IMG/VR virus record: IMGVR_UViG_2565956717_000009
Location: 1-37,482 of that record
Direction: 5' to 3' (one strand)
Length of the DNA stretch: 37,482 nt
Source of the DNA: a virus
Taxonomy: Duplodnaviria; Heunggongvirae; Uroviricota; Caudoviricetes
In this document: in pieces, positions 1-24,162 of the stretch
Position numbering within the stretch: position 1 is the stretch's first letter
Layout: every line of letters begins with the position of its first letter
Program-made: the position numbers and the translations under genes
The notes under the pieces: generated by a model
The model's input: only the letters and a program-made list of their open reading frames with translations
What the model was told of the DNA's origin: nothing
Database searches by the model: none

Positions 1-2946
1 TTAGTGCTTCCCTTCTATTAAGTCTAACCTAGCTTTTATTCTTTCTATTTCTCTGCGCTGCCATGCCGCCTCGATATAGAATAAGAGATCAGGTCTGACC
101 CCCCATCTAGATCCTGCTGGCGTTATTTCAACGCGCTCAATGATGTCTTCCATTACCATCACTGGATTATCATCCTCATCAACAATGATGCTCCCGTCAT
201 TATCAGTCAGCGGCATTTCCCTTTGGCCAGTAATGACGTCATCATATACTGCGGGATAATCGTCATAGCAAAGAAAGGCATAGCGGCATGTTGTGCTTTC
301 TTCTTCCATGAGTCCGTGAGAAATAAGAACATCACGAAGTTGCTGCGCGATTACACCATGATGTATCCTCGCCCCTTCTTCCCCCTTTATAGCGACAGCG
401 TTCAGCCATTTATAAGCGATATACCTGACGTCACCCCAGGCATCCAGCAATGCTTCGTCAGGAGAGACCGGCTCTGTCTTTAATGTTCCGTCACTGGTAA
501 CCACAGGATTGGAGCCAAGATAAACTGTCGAGAACCTGTTTCCCGGACCACCAAGAGCATTTACATTATCAAGATAAGGTTTAACATCTCCGTTCTCAAA
601 AAGATGTTCGAGTGCGTTATATACCGCGCGACGTGGAGTACTGCTTCCGGAACCATGCAACGTTATCATTGCACCATCTGCTGAAGACGTTGTTTCACCG
701 CCGCTAACGATTAATCTCTGAGCGGTAACATCATCAGACGGTACTTTCTTCGCAATAATGGCGTAATTACCCTCAAGTTTGACTTCCGCGCGAACTTGTC
801 CTGATGTACCTGCATGGACAGTCAGTGACTGGACGGCAACATCATCTGTGAAATCAACGGGTACAGGAACCGTCCTCACGCCTGACGTCGACATAAAAGT
901 AGGAAGCGTTCTGTTAGGAGTGGCTCCGTAGACAAAATCCCTTGAAACAAATTCTTCCTGTTTAATTTTCACCCTGAAACAATACAAATCAGCCGGGTGA
1001 CCATCGTGAACATAAGGATATTTTCTGTTGTTATCCCCTATGCTCCATGGGTTTAGAAAGTCTTCCCCACCGAAAATGTAGTACAGCCAGTTGTCTTTGA
1101 TACAAACTGAACCAACACCAACCGCAGAGTTAACTATTCCGCCCTGATAAATCTGATCAGTAACATTAACCCACTCTACATTATCCAGACTCCACTCATT
1201 GACGTTAACTCTGGTCATAAATGTTCTTGGATAATTTCCTGCATAACGGTTATCAGGTTCTCCTCCTTCCCACTCACCAAATGCGCGCTCACTGCCAAAA
1301 ATAATCAGCTCATCGCCAACTTTGGCAAAAGGAAAGTTTGAGTGATGAACATTATTTGGGAAGCGAAGAGAATTCCATGATGTACCTAAATCAGAGCTTC
1401 TGTGCAATGAACTACCGGGTTGAGTACTTAATGTCCCCCTGGTCGTCAGATACAGAATGCCATCATAATATTTTACACATGGCTCAGATGCATTCGCCTC
1501 ATATTCTGCAGGTATGCGTCTGCGAACAAAGCTACCAGGAGAACCGAAAGCATCAGAGAAATAGAGTATCCCAAGCTCGCGTGGACCAATATCACCATTA
1601 TGGTAGCCAACAGCAAAACTGTTATCGCTAATCGTCGCAAAACTGTGAATCTCAGTAACAGGAGTGCTTCCGTCAACAAAAGAAGGAATAGTTCCAAGAC
1701 TGGTTTTTCTCCATGGTGAAGAGTGAAATGATGTACCAAAACTCCAGTATCTACCCTCGTTATTCTGATCCACATCCTGGGTATTTTGCGTCGTAACTGT
1801 AAAAGTATTTTTATCAATAACAGTAGTCACCGTCATATTCCCGGTAACACCTGTAACACCAGAGTTTGAGAAGTTGACAAAATCACCAGCAAATAATCCG
1901 TGATCAGTAATGCGAATATAAGCGACTTGCTGATTTGCTGCTTTCGTTATACCACCATAAACGCGAAGGCTGCGACTCATTGGGCGATCCCACAACTCTG
2001 CAACCTGCAGTTTATTTCCGCTCACGGTCCGCGTCTCAATTACAGCAAAAAGGCGATTTCTGACAACCCCCATACACATGCAGTGATAGTTAACTGTGGG
2101 ATAGTTTTCATGTAAATCTGTAAGCCATTCCGGCGTTGTCCAGGTCTTCCCGTCATCTCCTGAGCGAACCCATGCAACATGGAGGTTATTTACACCATGG
2201 CGGTCTCCAGCCATAAAAGGCGCATAGATGACATTGTCATATACAAACGTTTTATCCTGCGTCCAGGCGTTGTACCACGGTGTATCTGTAATTTTAAATA
2301 ACTCTCCCTGGATAAAATCTTCAGAAGCATAAAAAAGAGGCTGACCCGGTATTCTCTCAAATAAAAAACGAGCATTTTTAAATCGACTGACATCTGGAAG
2401 AGTTGATACTTTAAAAGTAAGCCCTCGCCCATCTATCTTTTCACCACCTGTTGCAACAGAAAGTAATTCTGATAGAGCTGATGTATCATCATGAACACCA
2501 TCACCAATAGCCCCCCAACCTCTTACATCATAACTGTCTCTCCATCTTGCTATCTGAAGTTTTGGGTATTTATTCGCTCCATCTGGGTCTTCTAATTGCT
2601 GCCGTAACTGATCAGGATCATACTTCAGCACATTAGGAAAATAGAACTGCTGTGTACCATACGCATCATAAACAGCCATAGAATGGCCTTGCACGGTTAC
2701 GAATTTGGCAATCTGTCCGTTATATACCGGATATCCAGCAGCGTTAATCATTATTGGTTGCGAAACAGGAATGTGAGAACCGTCTTCGTTCTCTACATAA
2801 ACCTGAATCTGGTTTTCAGGATTTACCGGGTCAGTGTCAATTTTACCGATATAAATTTTGCCATTGGCTACGGCTTTAAAAGAACGCGCCATAGTGAAGA
2901 GTTGCGAAGGCATACTCACTACAACATTGGCTGTAATGTCTGTCAT
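1..2946 (-). CDS. Tailspike: P22 gp9-like head-binding N-domain + sialidase-fold (endosialidase-like) receptor domain + C-terminal intramolecular chaperone (peptidase S74-like)
   Basis: N-terminus [11 protein letters not shown]...[11 protein letters not shown]...LKYDPDQ matches recalled P22 gp9 head-binding domain; two Asp-box motifs ([16 protein letters not shown]); C-terminal ...[16 protein letters not shown]... resembles endosialidase/tail-fibre chaperone domain; 981 aa ORF. Confidence 0.88.
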
Positions 2947-3013
2947 TTAATTTGCTCCAGATACAAGGAATCGCCGCAGCATTGCCACAGTGATGCATTA
3001 TTAATCAAACAAA

Positions 3014-3028
3014 GAGACCGCTGTGGTC
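3014..3028. promoter_or_regulatory. Palindrome AGACC-GCTGT-GGTCT in tailspike/mnt divergent intergenic region; candidate operator
   Basis: Perfect 5-bp inverted arms with 5-nt spacer in the 146-bp divergent region; architecture loosely resembles recalled P22 Omnt. Binding protein not established. Confidence 0.25.
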
Positions 3029-3092
3029 TTATTGAGGATGCAACCAGCAGATAATAAGATGCCGATCCACTCACAAAAGCGAGGCATCAAGA

Positions 3093-3344
3093 ATGGGAAG
3101 AGATGACCCGCAATTTAATCTGCGGCTACCTTACGAATTAAAGGAAAAACTAAAACAGCGAGCCAAATCCAATGGCCGCTCTCTTAATTCAGAATTAGTT
3201 CAGATAGTGACTGATGCTGTATCAAAGCCATCCAAAATTTCAGGCTATCGAGACGATGCGGAACGCATCGCTGATGAGCAGTCAGAGCTTGTTAAGAAGA
3301 TGGTGTTTGATACGCTGAAGGATTTGTACAAAAAACCCACCTGA
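3093..3344 (+). CDS. mnt: Mnt-like ribbon-helix-helix repressor
   Basis: 83 aa; MGRDDPQFNLRLPYELKEKLKQRAKSNGRSLNSELVQIV...AERIADEQSELVKKMVFDTLKDLYKK closely matches recalled P22 Mnt; GAGG RBS 8 nt upstream. Confidence 0.8.
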   Translation: MGRDDPQFNLRLPYELKEKLKQRAKSNGRSLNSELVQIVTDAVSKPSKISGYRDDAERIADEQSELVKKMVFDTLKDLYKKPT

Positions 3345-3360
3345 AGGTGGGTTAATTTTT
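3331..3360 (+). terminator. Hairpin terminator at mnt 3' end (cccacc-tgaa-ggtggg + T-rich tail)
   Basis: 6-bp GC-rich stem at 3336-3341/3346-3351 flanked by A-run upstream and ttaattttt downstream; mnt stop codon lies in the loop. Confidence 0.55.
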
Positions 3361-3443
3361 GCATTTACCTGGGCCATATTGACTACTTATAAAATGAGAT
3401 CAATATTTAATCGCCCAATAACGGGTGTATGTTGAGGTATATC

Positions 3444-3623
3444 ATGGCGAAAAAACCAGGTGAAAACACAGGAAAAAACGGCGGAATATACCAAGAAGTT
3501 GGCCCACGCGGCGGTAAGAAAGACAATTTTGCAACCGTCAAGGACAACGAAAGGCTTCCACCAACAACAAAGCCAGGTCATGGCTGGGTATTGGATAAGC
3601 GAACTCCAGACAGCAAAAAGTAA
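3444..3623 (+). CDS. Small Gly/Lys-rich protein, YjzC-like (recollection)
   Basis: 59 aa from ATG 3444 with GAGGT RBS 5 nt upstream; KPGE..G.Y.EVG pattern; possible -35 TTGACT at about 3389. Confidence 0.5.
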   Translation: MAKKPGENTGKNGGIYQEVGPRGGKKDNFATVKDNERLPPTTKPGHGWVLDKRTPDSKK

Positions 3624-3628
3624 TAATC

Positions 3629-3651
3629 AAGCCGGGTCACTCCGGCTTTTT
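3629..3651. terminator. Bidirectional hairpin terminator between convergent genes
   Basis: aagccgg-gtcact-ccggctt followed by ttttt; sits between the 3' ends of 3444..3623 (+) and 3637..4002 (-). Confidence 0.55.
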
Positions 3652-4002
3652 GATATGTCGCTCGCAGAACTCAACAAGCCTGCTCATTAAGTAGCAGTAA
3701 GTCTCGTTGGCTCTTCCTGGTTCAACATCAACACCTACCCTTGAGCAGATATCGAATGCCATGTGAGCGCACTCATGGGCAATAGTAGATAGTTTGCCAT
3801 TGAACACGCCTATCACATGCAAAACACCATTCTCGCTACTCATTGTATGAGACGCTCCGTTGGCGTCCGAGTCATGCACGTCAACGCCAAGTTTTTGATG
3901 CAGGCGTTGCCATTCTGGAAAGTCTCTACAAAACACAATTGTACCGCTCTCAAAGAGCGGAACGAGCATCTTTGGTACTTTTCCAATGTTAACTTTTTTC
4001 AT
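3637..4002 (-). CDS. Small HExxH-motif protein (putative zinc metallopeptidase-like; ImmA/IrrE-like is a guess)
   Basis: 121 aa; HECAH at residues 76-80; AGGA upstream of ATG; A+T-rich coding sequence; no transmembrane segment evident. Confidence 0.5.
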   Translation of the reverse strand: MKKVNIGKVPKMLVPLFESGTIVFCRDFPEWQRLHQKLGVDVHDSDANGASHTMSSENGVLHVIGVFNGKLSTIAHECAHMAFDICSRVGVDVEPGRANETYCYLMSRLVEFCERHIKKPE

Positions 4003-4032
4003 GGTATCCTGCGTAAAACTAAGGAGGTTGGT

Positions 4033-4455
4033 GTGTTTGGTATATTAAAGAAAAGCAAGATAAAAAAATTAAGGGCAGAACTCGCCGAAACACAAAAACT
4101 GGCTTCACATTTTTACAAAATGAAATACGACGCTGAAGAGCGTGCATTCGTTGAGTTATGCGATTTATCTATTCGTATGGGAGTAGAGCCAGATGTAGCG
4201 GCAAAAACTCAACAAGGCATTGATATACTTGCAGATGTTGTTTTAAACAGGCAATATGCGTTTTATCTAAACGAGAAGGCCATTCAGATTTACTCGCAAA
4301 TCTTCCTCCTAGAAAAAAGAAGAGGAACTCACGATCGAGAAGAGTGGTTAAATGAAGTTGTTAAAAAATCTGGCTGGGAAGTTGTTTCATCAGAACTACC
4401 TCTTATTTGTGCTGATTTAATCGAAGAGGCAAAAGAGCGCCTATCCGATGGCTAG
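4033..4455 (+). CDS. Hypothetical alpha-helical protein, divergent from the HExxH gene
   Basis: GTG start at 4033 preceded by AGGAGG (4022-4027) at 5-nt spacing; in frame with ORF-track 3817..4455 but the long form has no RBS and overlaps the minus gene; 140 aa. Confidence 0.5.
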   Translation: MFGILKKSKIKKLRAELAETQKLASHFYKMKYDAEERAFVELCDLSIRMGVEPDVAAKTQQGIDILADVVLNRQYAFYLNEKAIQIYSQIFLLEKRRGTHDREEWLNEVVKKSGWEVVSSELPLICADLIEEAKERLSDG

Positions 4456-4479: not shown

Positions 4480-6636
4480 TTACTCCTGTGCCATTCCGCT
4501 TAGCGATGCCACAATTCCAGCTCTTGCTAAACGCTGGAACTCTTCGTTTCCTAGTGCCTCGCGTATTGCCTTTACGGCGGCCTTATTTGCCATAAATCTG
4601 CGTTCCGCCGCCGCTAATGCACCATCACTTGCCCCAACCTTAACTGCCTTTGTTGCCTCTTGAACAGCCTTTTCAATAGCGTAACGACCACTGCGGGATG
4701 CAGCTAACTTTTCTATCGTCCCTTTAGCTATAGATCCAGAAACAGCCCCTACAACACCGCCAACAATCCCTCCACCAGTAGTACCAACAATAGCCCCTGA
4801 TGTTGAATTGCCTATTGCATTGAGAACTGTCATGACAGCTTTTGGCAGTCCTTGCTCAAGAGAGTTAATTGCCGGTATAGAGCGCCCCGTATGCTCTACA
4901 TATCGCAGTGGTCTGGTTGCTGCTCTGGCAAGGTCGCTGTATGCCCTAGCAATCTTACCCATTTCTGGCGAGTGCCTACTAATGGCAGTAATGTTCTGCG
5001 GCGTAAGGATCGACGCTATATGGAATACGCCAGCAGACTCTGATTTACCGCCACGCACCCCTTGCGATACCGCATCTTGTAATATTGATGCAATTGCAGG
5101 AGATCGCTCAGACTCTGGCAGCGCGCCAATAATCTGATGAAACTTTCCTGTCCCACTTTTTGATGAATTTTGCAAGGCTTTAATACCATCAGTGACTAAC
5201 TGATCAGTTGCAAGGTTTCTAAACGCTGCTTCAGCCTGTTCTTGTGCTGTAAATCTTGCTTTTGACAGATCATTAGCTTTTTGCCAGTCATCAAGAAAAC
5301 CGCCATTTTGAGCCATTATGCGCATATCTTCCGTTGCTGCATCACGAAGCTCCGCCATGCGCCTTGCCGTATTTGCCTCACCAGACCTTATATACTTCTG
5401 CTCAGCGTCAGCAAGTTTACTTCGCCATGCCTTCATGGCATCAAACGTGATTCCTTTTTTACCAGTTTTAGCATAAGCAGATGCAAATTGTTTCATCTCA
5501 GGAGTTAGCGGCATGCCAGCCAAAATATCACCCTGAATTGTAGCGTTCAGGTTTGACATTCTGGCCTTTGCGTCAGGCATCGTGGAGCGGACGCTATCCC
5601 ATGCTGCCTTTTCTGAGTTCTTCATTTTATCAATACTTGCTAAAACCCTTTGTTTTATGGCTGCACTTTTTTCTGATGCAGATCCAGCCTCAGCACCAAG
5701 TTCATCAAGTGCTGAGTGGAATTTCGACTGTATTTCACTAAAAGCCCTAGTATGTGCATCCTGAACAATTCCTGGTTCGGATGCCAATATCCCTTCGGCT
5801 TGTGCAATTCCACGACTTCCAGATCGCATTCCTGGTGTTAATGCGTTTATATCAATTCCAGCAGACTCAGCTGCTTTTGCTACATCTTCGGACACATTAG
5901 CGGCCTGACTGGCAATTGACTGACGCCCAGCACCTGACTTTGCCATCCTGGAAACATCATTAGCAGAATTCAGTGCTGCACCACCAAGAGCCTGTGAAAC
6001 CTTTGGCGCAATAACGCGCCCGACACCTGAAAGAACGCCTTGAGCACCAATATTGATACCACCGTTAATGGCAGCATTTTGTGCAAAATCACCCTCCTGA
6101 TTTGCAGCATCAGCAAGAGAACCGGCAATCATGTTTCCTGCGGAACCGATGTCTCCTGCGAGCTTTGCTGGCGCTCCAGCAGCTTTTGCCGCTGTGCCAA
6201 TTGGCAGGAGATACCCACCAATTGTTTCACCGGCTTGTGCGTAAGAGTCTGTCGGTCGATCGACTGGACGATAGACATCATCCAAAACCTTGGGGCCACC
6301 AAGCCCCTGGCTGATTGCATTAATCAGACTTGCGCCACCCTGCAATACGTCAAATGGTATGTTTACCAGACCACGACCAGCCTGTTCTGCAATTTGCCCT
6401 GCACTTTGACCACCAGTGAGCCAATCGCCAGCTTGTTGCATCAATGATGGTTCTTCTTTCTGCTGCTGAGGCGGATGGTATGCTGCATAAAACTGATCTC
6501 TTGCTTCAGCCCATTTGTCACCAGCCTTAGGGGCAACAACCTCATCAAAATATTGCGCTTGAGCCTGTGCTTTCTGTTCTTCAGTTAACGCCTGATACTG
6601 TGGAGAGGCGATAACATCTTTCCATGCTTTAGCCAT
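4480..6636 (-). CDS. Ejection (DNA transfer) protein, P22 gp16-like
   Basis: 718 aa, Ala/Gly/Gln-rich; position and order 7-20-16 immediately upstream of the immI region as in P22. Confidence 0.7.
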
Positions 6637-23153: not shown

Positions 23154-23440
23154 GACTTAATCTTCCCCTCCTTCAGCAGTATCGCCTGCGTCCTGATTAC
23201 GCCTTCGAGGTGGTAAAGTCTGGCGTCTTTGTTGTCGAGATTATGGGTGCGTCGGTCGATTTCATCGTGACACGCGCTACAAGCCCATGCGCCGATCAGG
23301 TCGTCAGGTTTCATTCCCGTTCCGCAAATTCCAGCCATCCGGTAATGTGCCAGAACTGTAGTTTCAGGATTACCATTGCATACGCCGTAAATACGTACCT
23401 GGCATTCTCTGCCGCGCGCTTCTTTGCGTAGGTTAGCCAT
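23150..23440 (-). CDS. YbcO-like (DUF1364) putative nuclease
   Basis: 96 aa, Cys-rich; position between Rha-like and RusA as in DLP12-type nin regions (recollection). Confidence 0.6.
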   Translation of the reverse strand: MANLRKEARGRECQVRIYGVCNGNPETTVLAHYRMAGICGTGMKPDDLIGAWACSACHDEIDRRTHNLDNKDARLYHLEGVIRTQAILLKEGKIKS

Positions 23441-24162
23441 TAAGCAGCCTCCCCTGTTACTTTCAGCATTCCGTTATCGAGCAGCTTTCTGGTCAGCCAC
23501 TGTTGACCACGCCCGGTGATTTTTGTGGTGAACGATATCTGTATTCCGTGATTTGTGTTGACCGCTGTTTCTTTCACTGTGAAATAGCCGCGATCCATAT
23601 ATTCCTGCATTGGCACATTTCGCCGGGAACCTGAAGCAATAAGGATTTTGTGATCGCGCATCCACGCAAACAGTTTGTTTGGACCAATTCCAACAACCTT
23701 TGCAAAGTTTCCAATCAAAATTCCGCTGGCCTCGCCAACGCGATCGGCAAACTCAACTTTAGGTGCGGCAATTGCGAGCTGGTTTTCCAGTTGCATTTTC
23801 TGCTCAGCAAGATCAGCAGCAAGGCGCAACGCTTCCGGTAGCGTTTTGGGGATATTAACCGCAGCTTCTTCAAGCTCTCGCCAGCGGTCAACAAGGCGAG
23901 CGGTGAATTCCGGCGACAACTGGGCAACAACAACAATACTATCTCGCTTACCTTGTTCGCCTTCGAAGACGTAATGCTCGTACTGAACATTGAACCCTAA
24001 GTTATTGATTCTTTCGGAAACCTCAATTTGAGGAAGCCGGATAACACCATTTTTAGCCAGCGTTTCGATGGTACGTTTCACATTGTCATGACGCTTACCC
24101 ACCAACTCAGCGATTTCAATGCTTGTCATTTTGATGGCATTGCCATTTATTAACTCATTCAT
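23440..24162 (-). CDS. Rha-family regulatory protein with antirepressor-like (KilAC) C-terminal domain
   Basis: N-terminal MTSIEIAELVGKRHDNVKRTIETL; C-terminal FADRVGEASGILIGNFAKVVGIGPNKLFAWMRDHKIL. Confidence 0.7.
   Translation of the reverse strand: MNELINGNAIKMTSIEIAELVGKRHDNVKRTIETLAKNGVIRLPQIEVSERINNLGFNVQYEHYVFEGEQGKRDSIVVVAQLSPEFTARLVDRWRELEEAAVNIPKTLPEALRLAADLAEQKMQLENQLAIAAPKVEFADRVGEASGILIGNFAKVVGIGPNKLFAWMRDHKILIASGSRRNVPMQEYMDRGYFTVKETAVNTNHGIQISFTTKITGRGQQWLTRKLLDNGMLKVTGEAA

Follow-up and report, generated by a model that had tools for sequence, protein, structure and literature searches.

An orphan mnt gene with a putative Omnt-type operator beside the tailspike gene of a CUS-3-like phage

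The interval between gene 16 and the tailspike gene

The window, i.e. the whole stretch of 37,482 nucleotides analysed here, is a CUS-3-like member of the P22-like prophages. Its closest whole-genome relative is CUS-3 (CP000711), which aligns with 73% of its first 25 kb at about 96% identity, a likeness that includes the endosialidase tailspike and the virion genes. Near one end of the window, an mnt gene for 83 aa is divergent from the tailspike gene at a distance of 146 bp (spacer 2947..3092), as described in the initial annotation. The following features were identified in this region.

2946..1, minus strand: tailspike gene (gene 9 homologue), 981 aa, with P22 head-binding, endosialidase and C-terminal chaperone domains
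2947..2985, minus strand: gene 9 leader with Shine-Dalgarno GGAG (2955-2958, minus strand), common to P22 and all orphan-mnt loci
3014..3030, no strand: candidate operator of the Omnt type, GAGACCGC-T-GTGGTCTT, core GACCAC-N-GTGGTC, in positional homology to P22 Omnt
3032..3060, plus strand: Pmnt-like promoter, -35 TTGAGG (3032-3037), 17-nt spacer, -10 TAAGAT (3055-3060)
3081..3084, plus strand: mnt Shine-Dalgarno GAGG, read from the sequence, in a GTGAGGCATCA block conserved in alignment A1
3093..3344, plus strand: mnt, 83 aa, ribbon-helix-helix (RHH) repressor with C-terminal tetramerisation domain
3334..3353, no strand: bidirectional intrinsic terminator directly after mnt, perfect 8-bp stem
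3379..3407, plus strand: promoter-like site TTGACT-17-AATATT upstream of orf59a
3444..3623, plus strand: orf59a homologue, 98% identical to P22 orf59a
3629..3648, plus strand: terminator after orf59a, at the t-mnt position in P22
3637..4002, minus strand: hkcC-like gene (PHROG 1365), oriented as the late operon and located between the mnt block and gene 16
4480-6636, minus strand: gene 16 homologue

The product of mnt belongs to the Mnt family, as both the N-terminal RHH domain and the C-terminal coiled-coil tetramerisation domain are present. It matches Arc (PF03869, E 2.8e-22) and Repressor_Mnt (PF11423, E 2.2e-18, residues 53-80) in Pfam and, among PDB entries, 1MNT (E 2.8e-34, residues 3-77) and the tetramerisation domain 1QEY (E 3e-12); identity to P22 Mnt is 76% over all 83 residues. 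The gene is a mosaic, in that the DNA from about 3246-3268 onward through orf59a (to 3700) is 97% identical to P22, while the 5' part of mnt and the operator are of a different (Gln6) type. The switch falls at about codon 52-58, which is the boundary between the RHH and tetramerisation domains, so that the recombination junction is located at a domain boundary. The tailspike on the other side of the spacer is 96% identical to that of CUS-3 and contains the Pfam domains Head_binding, End_N_terminal, End_beta_propel, End_tail_spike and Peptidase_S74.

In P22, gene 9 is followed by ant, sar, arc, Omnt/Pant/Pmnt, mnt, orf59a, sieA and gene 16; the initial annotation, which gave mnt as divergent from arc-ant and placed ant between it and gene 9, had this layout right. 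In the window, the same interval holds mnt, orf59a, the hkcC-like gene and a 140-aa ORF; with mnt and small genes present and neither arc nor ant, it is a mnt-only 'ant moron' of the type found in phages L, ST64T and ST104. With the Arc and Ant proteins of P22 and the Ant protein of CUS-3 as tblastn queries, the 37.5-kb window gave no match besides mnt itself, the only Arc-like match, and Oarc is absent from the spacer. The elements by which a P22-type immI would be recognized, namely ant, arc/Oarc and a strong Pant overlapping Omnt, are all missing from the window. The claim that arc and ant are absent is thereby confirmed for genes of the P22 type, none of which lies elsewhere in the window, and it holds for the immI module with a caveat concerning one further protein. 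Among the early-region ORFs screened with Pfam and PHROGs, a Roi-like Rha/KilAC protein was the only one found:

23440..24162, minus strand: Rha + KilAC protein with the Pfam domain named 'ANT', 240 aa; PHROG 63 'anti-repressor Ant'

It is encoded inside the nin operon in a Roi-like position, after ninB and ninE-like/ninF-like ORFs. It is no Ant of the P22 type, and it lacks both an arc partner and a Mnt-operator-like site in its vicinity.

The 140-aa ORF (4033-4455, plus strand) occupies the sieA slot of P22 and E. coli EC931, and has a GTG start preceded by a strong Shine-Dalgarno, AGGAGG (4023-4028). It had no Pfam, PHROGs, PADLOC or NCBIfam match, and similarity to the phage database ends near 4040. 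The ORF may represent prophage-expressed cargo for exclusion or defence that has yet to be described. PADLOC and NCBIfam likewise gave nothing for the neighbouring small ORFs, nor did Rfam match anywhere in the window.

Operator, mnt promoter and Mnt specificity

The initial annotation drew attention to a perfect palindrome, AGACC-N5-GGTCT, in the spacer. The palindrome exists, although its coordinates are 3015..3029 and not 3014-3028, i.e. they were one base off. On its own it is at chance level, with 68% of 2,000 dinucleotide shuffles of the 146-mer containing an equal or better inverted repeat (arms no shorter than 5, loop no longer than 8), and we have therefore drawn its significance from homology and conservation. 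The proposed alignment to P22 Omnt identifies the palindrome as the positional homologue of that operator: the P22 counterpart, AGGTCCAC-C-GTGGACCT, is followed by ATTGAGA-(17 nt)-TATCAT, and the window element, GAGACCGC-T-GTGGTCTT, by ATTGAGG-(17 nt)-TAAGAT. The 17-bp element thus abuts the mnt promoter -35 in an identical register in P22 and the window, while the 5' UTR of mnt is 62 nt in the window and 57 nt in P22, so that the distance from operator to ATG differs by 5 nt. The Pmnt-like promoter has the register of P22 Pmnt (TTGAGA-17-TATCAT) and scores 8/12, under the scan threshold of 9. Alignment A1 shows its -35 and its -10, the latter together with a downstream block, to be conserved along with the operator and the mnt Shine-Dalgarno.

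Across 65 distinct related loci, the operator core GACCAC-N-GTGGTC is kept in 62; all four bases are seen at the centre and the two outermost left bases vary, the commonest allele being GAGACCACTGTGGTCTT with 7-bp arms. The window itself carries a private G3020 in place of the common A, the sole difference from E. coli EC931 across 551 nt, and this base falls in the core of the left operator half-site. The perfect palindrome of 5+5 noticed at first is therefore what a private point mutation has left of a 7+7 one. G3020 may weaken Mnt binding; alternatively, it could be a sequencing error. Further Mnt operators were not found in the window at up to three mismatches, apart from two 3-mismatch matches that both lie in coding regions and are at chance level (0.92 expected).

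Judging from homology and conservation, the palindrome is very probably where Mnt binds. Of the earlier proposal that Mnt acts there, what can be upheld is a putative site, homologous to P22 Omnt and conserved together with the N-terminal strand of Mnt across diverged lineages. From the P22-like geometry, we infer that Mnt autoregulates at Pmnt. A second inverted repeat, GATGCC...GGCATC (3058-3063 and 3083-3088), is present in all orphan-mnt lineages, the 18-19 nt between its arms being variable; it overlaps the -10 and discriminator of Pmnt and the bases right after the mnt Shine-Dalgarno.

The DNA-facing strand of window Mnt has R2, Q6, N8 and R10, and P22 Mnt differs from it in H6, with R2, N8 and R10 conserved. 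Mutagenesis in the Sauer laboratory reportedly showed Arg2, His6, Asn8 and Arg10 to be the DNA-contacting beta-strand residues of Mnt, and work by Youderian, Knight and Sauer reportedly identified residue 6 as a specificity determinant. Because Q6 is accompanied by a changed operator half-site, the change from His6 to Gln6 in window Mnt looks like altered specificity rather than loss. Pairs of Mnt strand and operator collected from other loci are as follows.

Strand RDDPHFNFR, operator GGTCCAC-N-GTGGACC: P22, E. coli MS198-1, Pluralibacter and Pectobacterium (the latter with left half-site AGTCCAC)
Strand REDPQFKLR, operator TGAACCAC-G-GTGGTTCA: E. coli STEC383
Strand RDDPQFNFR, operator ATATCAC-C-GTGATAT: Ca. 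Phlomobacter

All share the inner CAC-N-GTG, and the outer bases change with the DNA-facing residues. The Phlomobacter pair, in which a Q6/F9 Mnt faces ATATCAC-C-GTGATAT, indicates that residue 6 alone does not set the half-site. The STEC383 locus (L212, 2236-2640), which belongs to a P22-like prophage and is a third immI specificity pair with the strand SREDPQFKLR, also has a consensus TTGACA Pant, arc and ant, and a YafO-family toxin gene lies nearby.

Relative to P22 immI, then, the window is alike in the two-domain architecture of Mnt, in the register of the 17-bp operator to the Pmnt -35/-10 and in having orf59a and its terminator. It differs by being without arc, sar, ant, Oarc and a functional Pant, by the half-site GTGGTCT as opposed to GTGGACC in P22, by Gln6 as opposed to His6, and by the 5 additional nucleotides in the 5' UTR.

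Distribution of mnt-only loci and complete modules

The mnt-only arrangement is common and already described, and its presence in the window is not unusual. The interval between genes 16 and 9 was named the 'ant moron' by Villafane et al. (2008; PMC2629481), who noted that it turns over quickly and is absent entirely in Sf6, and the mnt-only form is in print for ST64T, ST104, Para1 and L (PMC2629481, PMC8022706). It is also annotated in many phage records; those with mnt directly beside gene 9 are ST160, SE1, ST104, ST64T, L, SPN9CC, Gally and vB_EcoP-720R6. Of 5,426 complete E. coli genomes, 101 (~2%) contain the stretch from the tailspike start across the spacer to mnt (coverage at least 80%). 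In IMG/VR, 64 of 80 loci have the mnt-only arrangement: all 64 with a Mnt protein at least 92% identical to that of the window carry mnt alongside gene 9 and neither arc nor ant, while the 16 loci with a P22-type (His6) Mnt all keep ant and an Arc-like ORF. A scan of IMG/VR for the operator pattern retrieved 120 stretches, 47 of them beside an Mnt homologue, although it required an exact AGACCAC-N-GTGGTCT and is thereby biased toward operator conservation. Among these 47 are more diverged orphan lineages, with Mnt proteins 60-76% identical to that of the window (L111, L158/L162, L189 and the ST104/L/ST64T type), all of them with DPQFNLR and all abutting a gene 9 homologue.

The closest counterparts of the window locus are found in the Salmonella phages L, ST64T, ST104, ST160 and SE1 and the E. 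coli phages Gally and vB_EcoP-720R6, which are alike in position, in a divergent mnt that directly adjoins gene 9 across a spacer of 135-146 bp, in the operator core GACCAC-N-GTGGTC, in the Mnt strand GRDDPQFNLR and in the bidirectional terminator after mnt. Across 99% of window positions 2800-3700, ST160 and SE1 match at 88% identity; for vB_EcoP-720R6, the stretch made up of tailspike start, spacer and mnt is 99.3% identical. From these mnt-only phages the window differs in its tailspike body, which is an endosialidase of the CUS-3 type and not an endorhamnosidase, in the P22-like C-terminal half of Mnt with orf59a, in the private G3020 and in the unrelated 140-aa ORF in the sieA slot. In spite of its overall similarity, CUS-3 has a moron composed of ant, a tandem pair of Arc/Mnt-family genes, the second one being of the His6 type, and hkcB. 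One group of mnt-only loci (L023, L034, L050-L054, L059, L063 and L068) forms a sub-lineage in which mnt and gene 9 stand about 424 bp apart; this spacer holds a 20-codon 5' fragment of gene 9, a scar of a tailspike swap.

Complete immI modules of the Q6 type were found only in three metagenomic, siphophage-like contigs of uncertain host, L085, L138 and L149. These share with the window the strand (ARDDPQFNLR) and an identical AAGACCACGGTGGTCT operator, but there the operator lies downstream of a consensus TTGACA promoter leading to arc and a P22-type ant, the C-terminal domain of Mnt is unrelated and a tape-measure gene is adjacent. BLAST detected no Q6-type full immI module in the 5,426 E. 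coli genomes; a search of E. coli for an L138-like mnt-operator-arc arrangement recovered only the His6 type and the third (Gln6-Lys8) type. A scan of genome contigs with the L138 Mnt-like protein gave no match, and an alignment-based scan gave four loci only. SPN3UB and Oslo-type Salmonella siphophages were also checked for a Gln6 module, and SPN3UB has an unrelated Arc-like repressor.

Possible roles of the orphan repressor

Sequence divergence among the orphan lineages suggests that mnt is maintained. Pairwise dN/dS is 0.08-0.42 wherever dS is measurable, and elsewhere dS is saturated with dN of 0.2-0.4; moreover, 107 of the 109 ORFs retrieved are full length. Being under purifying selection, the orphan gene is probably functional, and we consider Mnt to be probably kept for a function rather than decaying. 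Decay does occur, and damaged copies, with truncated Mnt, substitutions in the conserved NGRS motif or mutated operators, cluster in the sub-lineage with the ~424-bp spacer. The phage L paper lists a relic of immI as one possibility for its mnt and reports that phage L genetically lacks a functional P22-type immI (PMC8022706). Applied more generally, this would make mnt and its operator leftovers of a degrading immI that persist only because they are placed between essential late genes, and the core mutation in the window operator, along with the few damaged loci, can be read in that way. The low dN/dS at saturated synonymous sites, the near-complete set of intact ORFs and the conservation of operator and promoter blocks while their flanks vary argue against it, and, as the moron turns over quickly and was lost in Sf6, neutral retention over such divergence would be unexpected. 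We regard this account as unlikely, and the lack of P22-type immI function in phage L would also fit altered operator specificity.

The initial annotation suggested that Mnt at the palindrome regulates tailspike transcription, the downstream cargo, or both, rather than an antirepressor, and neither target is favoured by the comparison. Repression of a tailspike promoter, be it a retargeted Pant, or gating of late transcription into gene 9 has several points in its favour: the operator descends from the P22 one that overlaps the Pant start site, deletion of arc-ant puts gene 9 in the place of arc, the operator sits on the path of late read-through only 68 nt before the gene 9 ATG, and orphan mnt is always next to gene 9. 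Villafane et al. also noted a possible effect of the P22 ant moron on the frequency with which late transcripts extend to gene 9, in which Mnt and Arc may be involved (PMC2629481). The adjacency to gene 9, however, is a trivial consequence of the moron's fixed position, and the hexamers at the position of P22 Pant (TTGACA-17-TATATT) have degraded to TCGGCA-17-TGCATC, in which neither the A at -11 nor the T at -7 remains. Every orphan lineage has an unvarying C at -7, since this base pairs with the invariant G in the TTGxGG of the mnt -35, and Pant thus appears, from these alignments, to be uniformly lost. A consensus-based scan, which weak or activator-dependent leftward promoters could escape, found no sigma-70-like promoter on either strand of the spacer. 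Two minus-strand candidates, TATTAT near 3052 and AATAAT near 3001, were discarded as they have no usable -35 and are not conserved in the ST160/L types. The operator register is fixed to Pmnt and not to gene 9: within the spacer, conservation is lowest between operator and gene 9 leader, and the spacer length is 135 bp, 146-148 bp or, in the one sub-lineage, about 424 bp, and the distance from operator to gene 9 ATG is 57-69 nt in most loci and about 350 nt in that sub-lineage. A role of Mnt in tailspike expression is accordingly improbable in our estimate, and a main role in driving or limiting prophage-expressed cargo from Pmnt, i.e. orf59a onward, seems equally so. The P22 record places the mnt terminator after orf59a, which implies co-transcription, and the 3' end of mnt travels with orf59a as one block 97% identical to P22. 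Yet in the window a perfect 8-bp-stem terminator stands between mnt and orf59a, and orf59a is preceded by a promoter-like site of its own; many orphan-mnt loci are entirely without orf59a, no second operator was found, and a convergent gene and a further terminator come before the ORF in the sieA slot.

We therefore favour, at a probability of roughly 60%, that the locus represents a mnt-only form of the hypervariable ant moron (immI region) lying between gene 16 and gene 9 that is autoregulated, with the tailspike being reached by read-through. The window has lost arc, sar, ant and Pant and has kept a full-length Mnt with a single Mnt-type operator at the mnt -35, as in P22; loss of these elements has brought the operator to 68 nt from the tailspike ATG. 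The Mnt tetramer is predicted to bind GACCAC-N-GTGGTC and to autoregulate Pmnt in the lysogen. The literature (PMC8022706) assigns phages of this kind one late promoter, subject to Q/gp23 antitermination, and gene 9 is the end of the late operon, which passes gene 16 and the hkcC-like gene and then runs antisense through orf59a and mnt. Tailspike expression is thus most likely by late-operon read-through, and transcription would come from gene 16 under Q/gp23 antitermination, across the bidirectional terminator and antisense through mnt, and not start in the spacer. The strong hairpin at 3334-3353 is capable of termination on both strands, and late transcription has to traverse it to reach the tailspike, and its stem, which has two mismatches in P22, is restored to full pairing in the window by substitutions at 3336 and 3348. 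Phage L has the same layout, with terminators annotated on both strands after mnt.

The comparison frames the question of why an orphan repressor with one operator stays selected after its target genes are gone. With one operator and strand class for all orphans, full mnt-arc-ant modules elsewhere and Pant uniformly lost, the published question of 'remnant or new function?' can be recast. Beyond autoregulation, the most plausible role, although speculative, would be in trans, with Mnt repressing the ant promoter in phages that enter the lysogen or already reside there and that use this operator type, and it is suggested by the L085, L138 and L149 modules, in which this operator is combined with arc and ant. 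Such repression could protect the lysogen from antirepressor-mediated induction. We tentatively raise the possibility, to which we assign well below even odds, that orphan Mnt and its operator constitute a self-contained 'anti-antirepressor' module of immunity, maintained in P22-like prophages that belong to one immI specificity class (GACCAC-N-GTGGTC). If so, constitutive Mnt in the lysogen would shut the ant promoter of superinfecting or co-resident phages with the same operator, e.g. L138-like siphophages, and prevent induction of the resident prophage. The immI specificities (His6/GGTCCAC, Gln6/AGACCAC, Gln6-Lys8/GAACCAC and others) would then represent a second, exchangeable layer of immunity between phages.

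A conserved 'boundary' element is present upstream of gene 9 (2975-2996); it reads GCAGCATTGCCACAGTGATGC in the window and occurs twice in P22 (locus L002, 2447-2470 and 2556-2578) as GGCTACGGTGAATTTT. It has a CAC-N-GTG core recalling the operator centre, and slippage of 11 bp between GCCGCAG repeats distinguishes its variants. It is probably a hotspot for module exchange, and CUS-3 has 'bsq' boundary sequences annotated at the same place.
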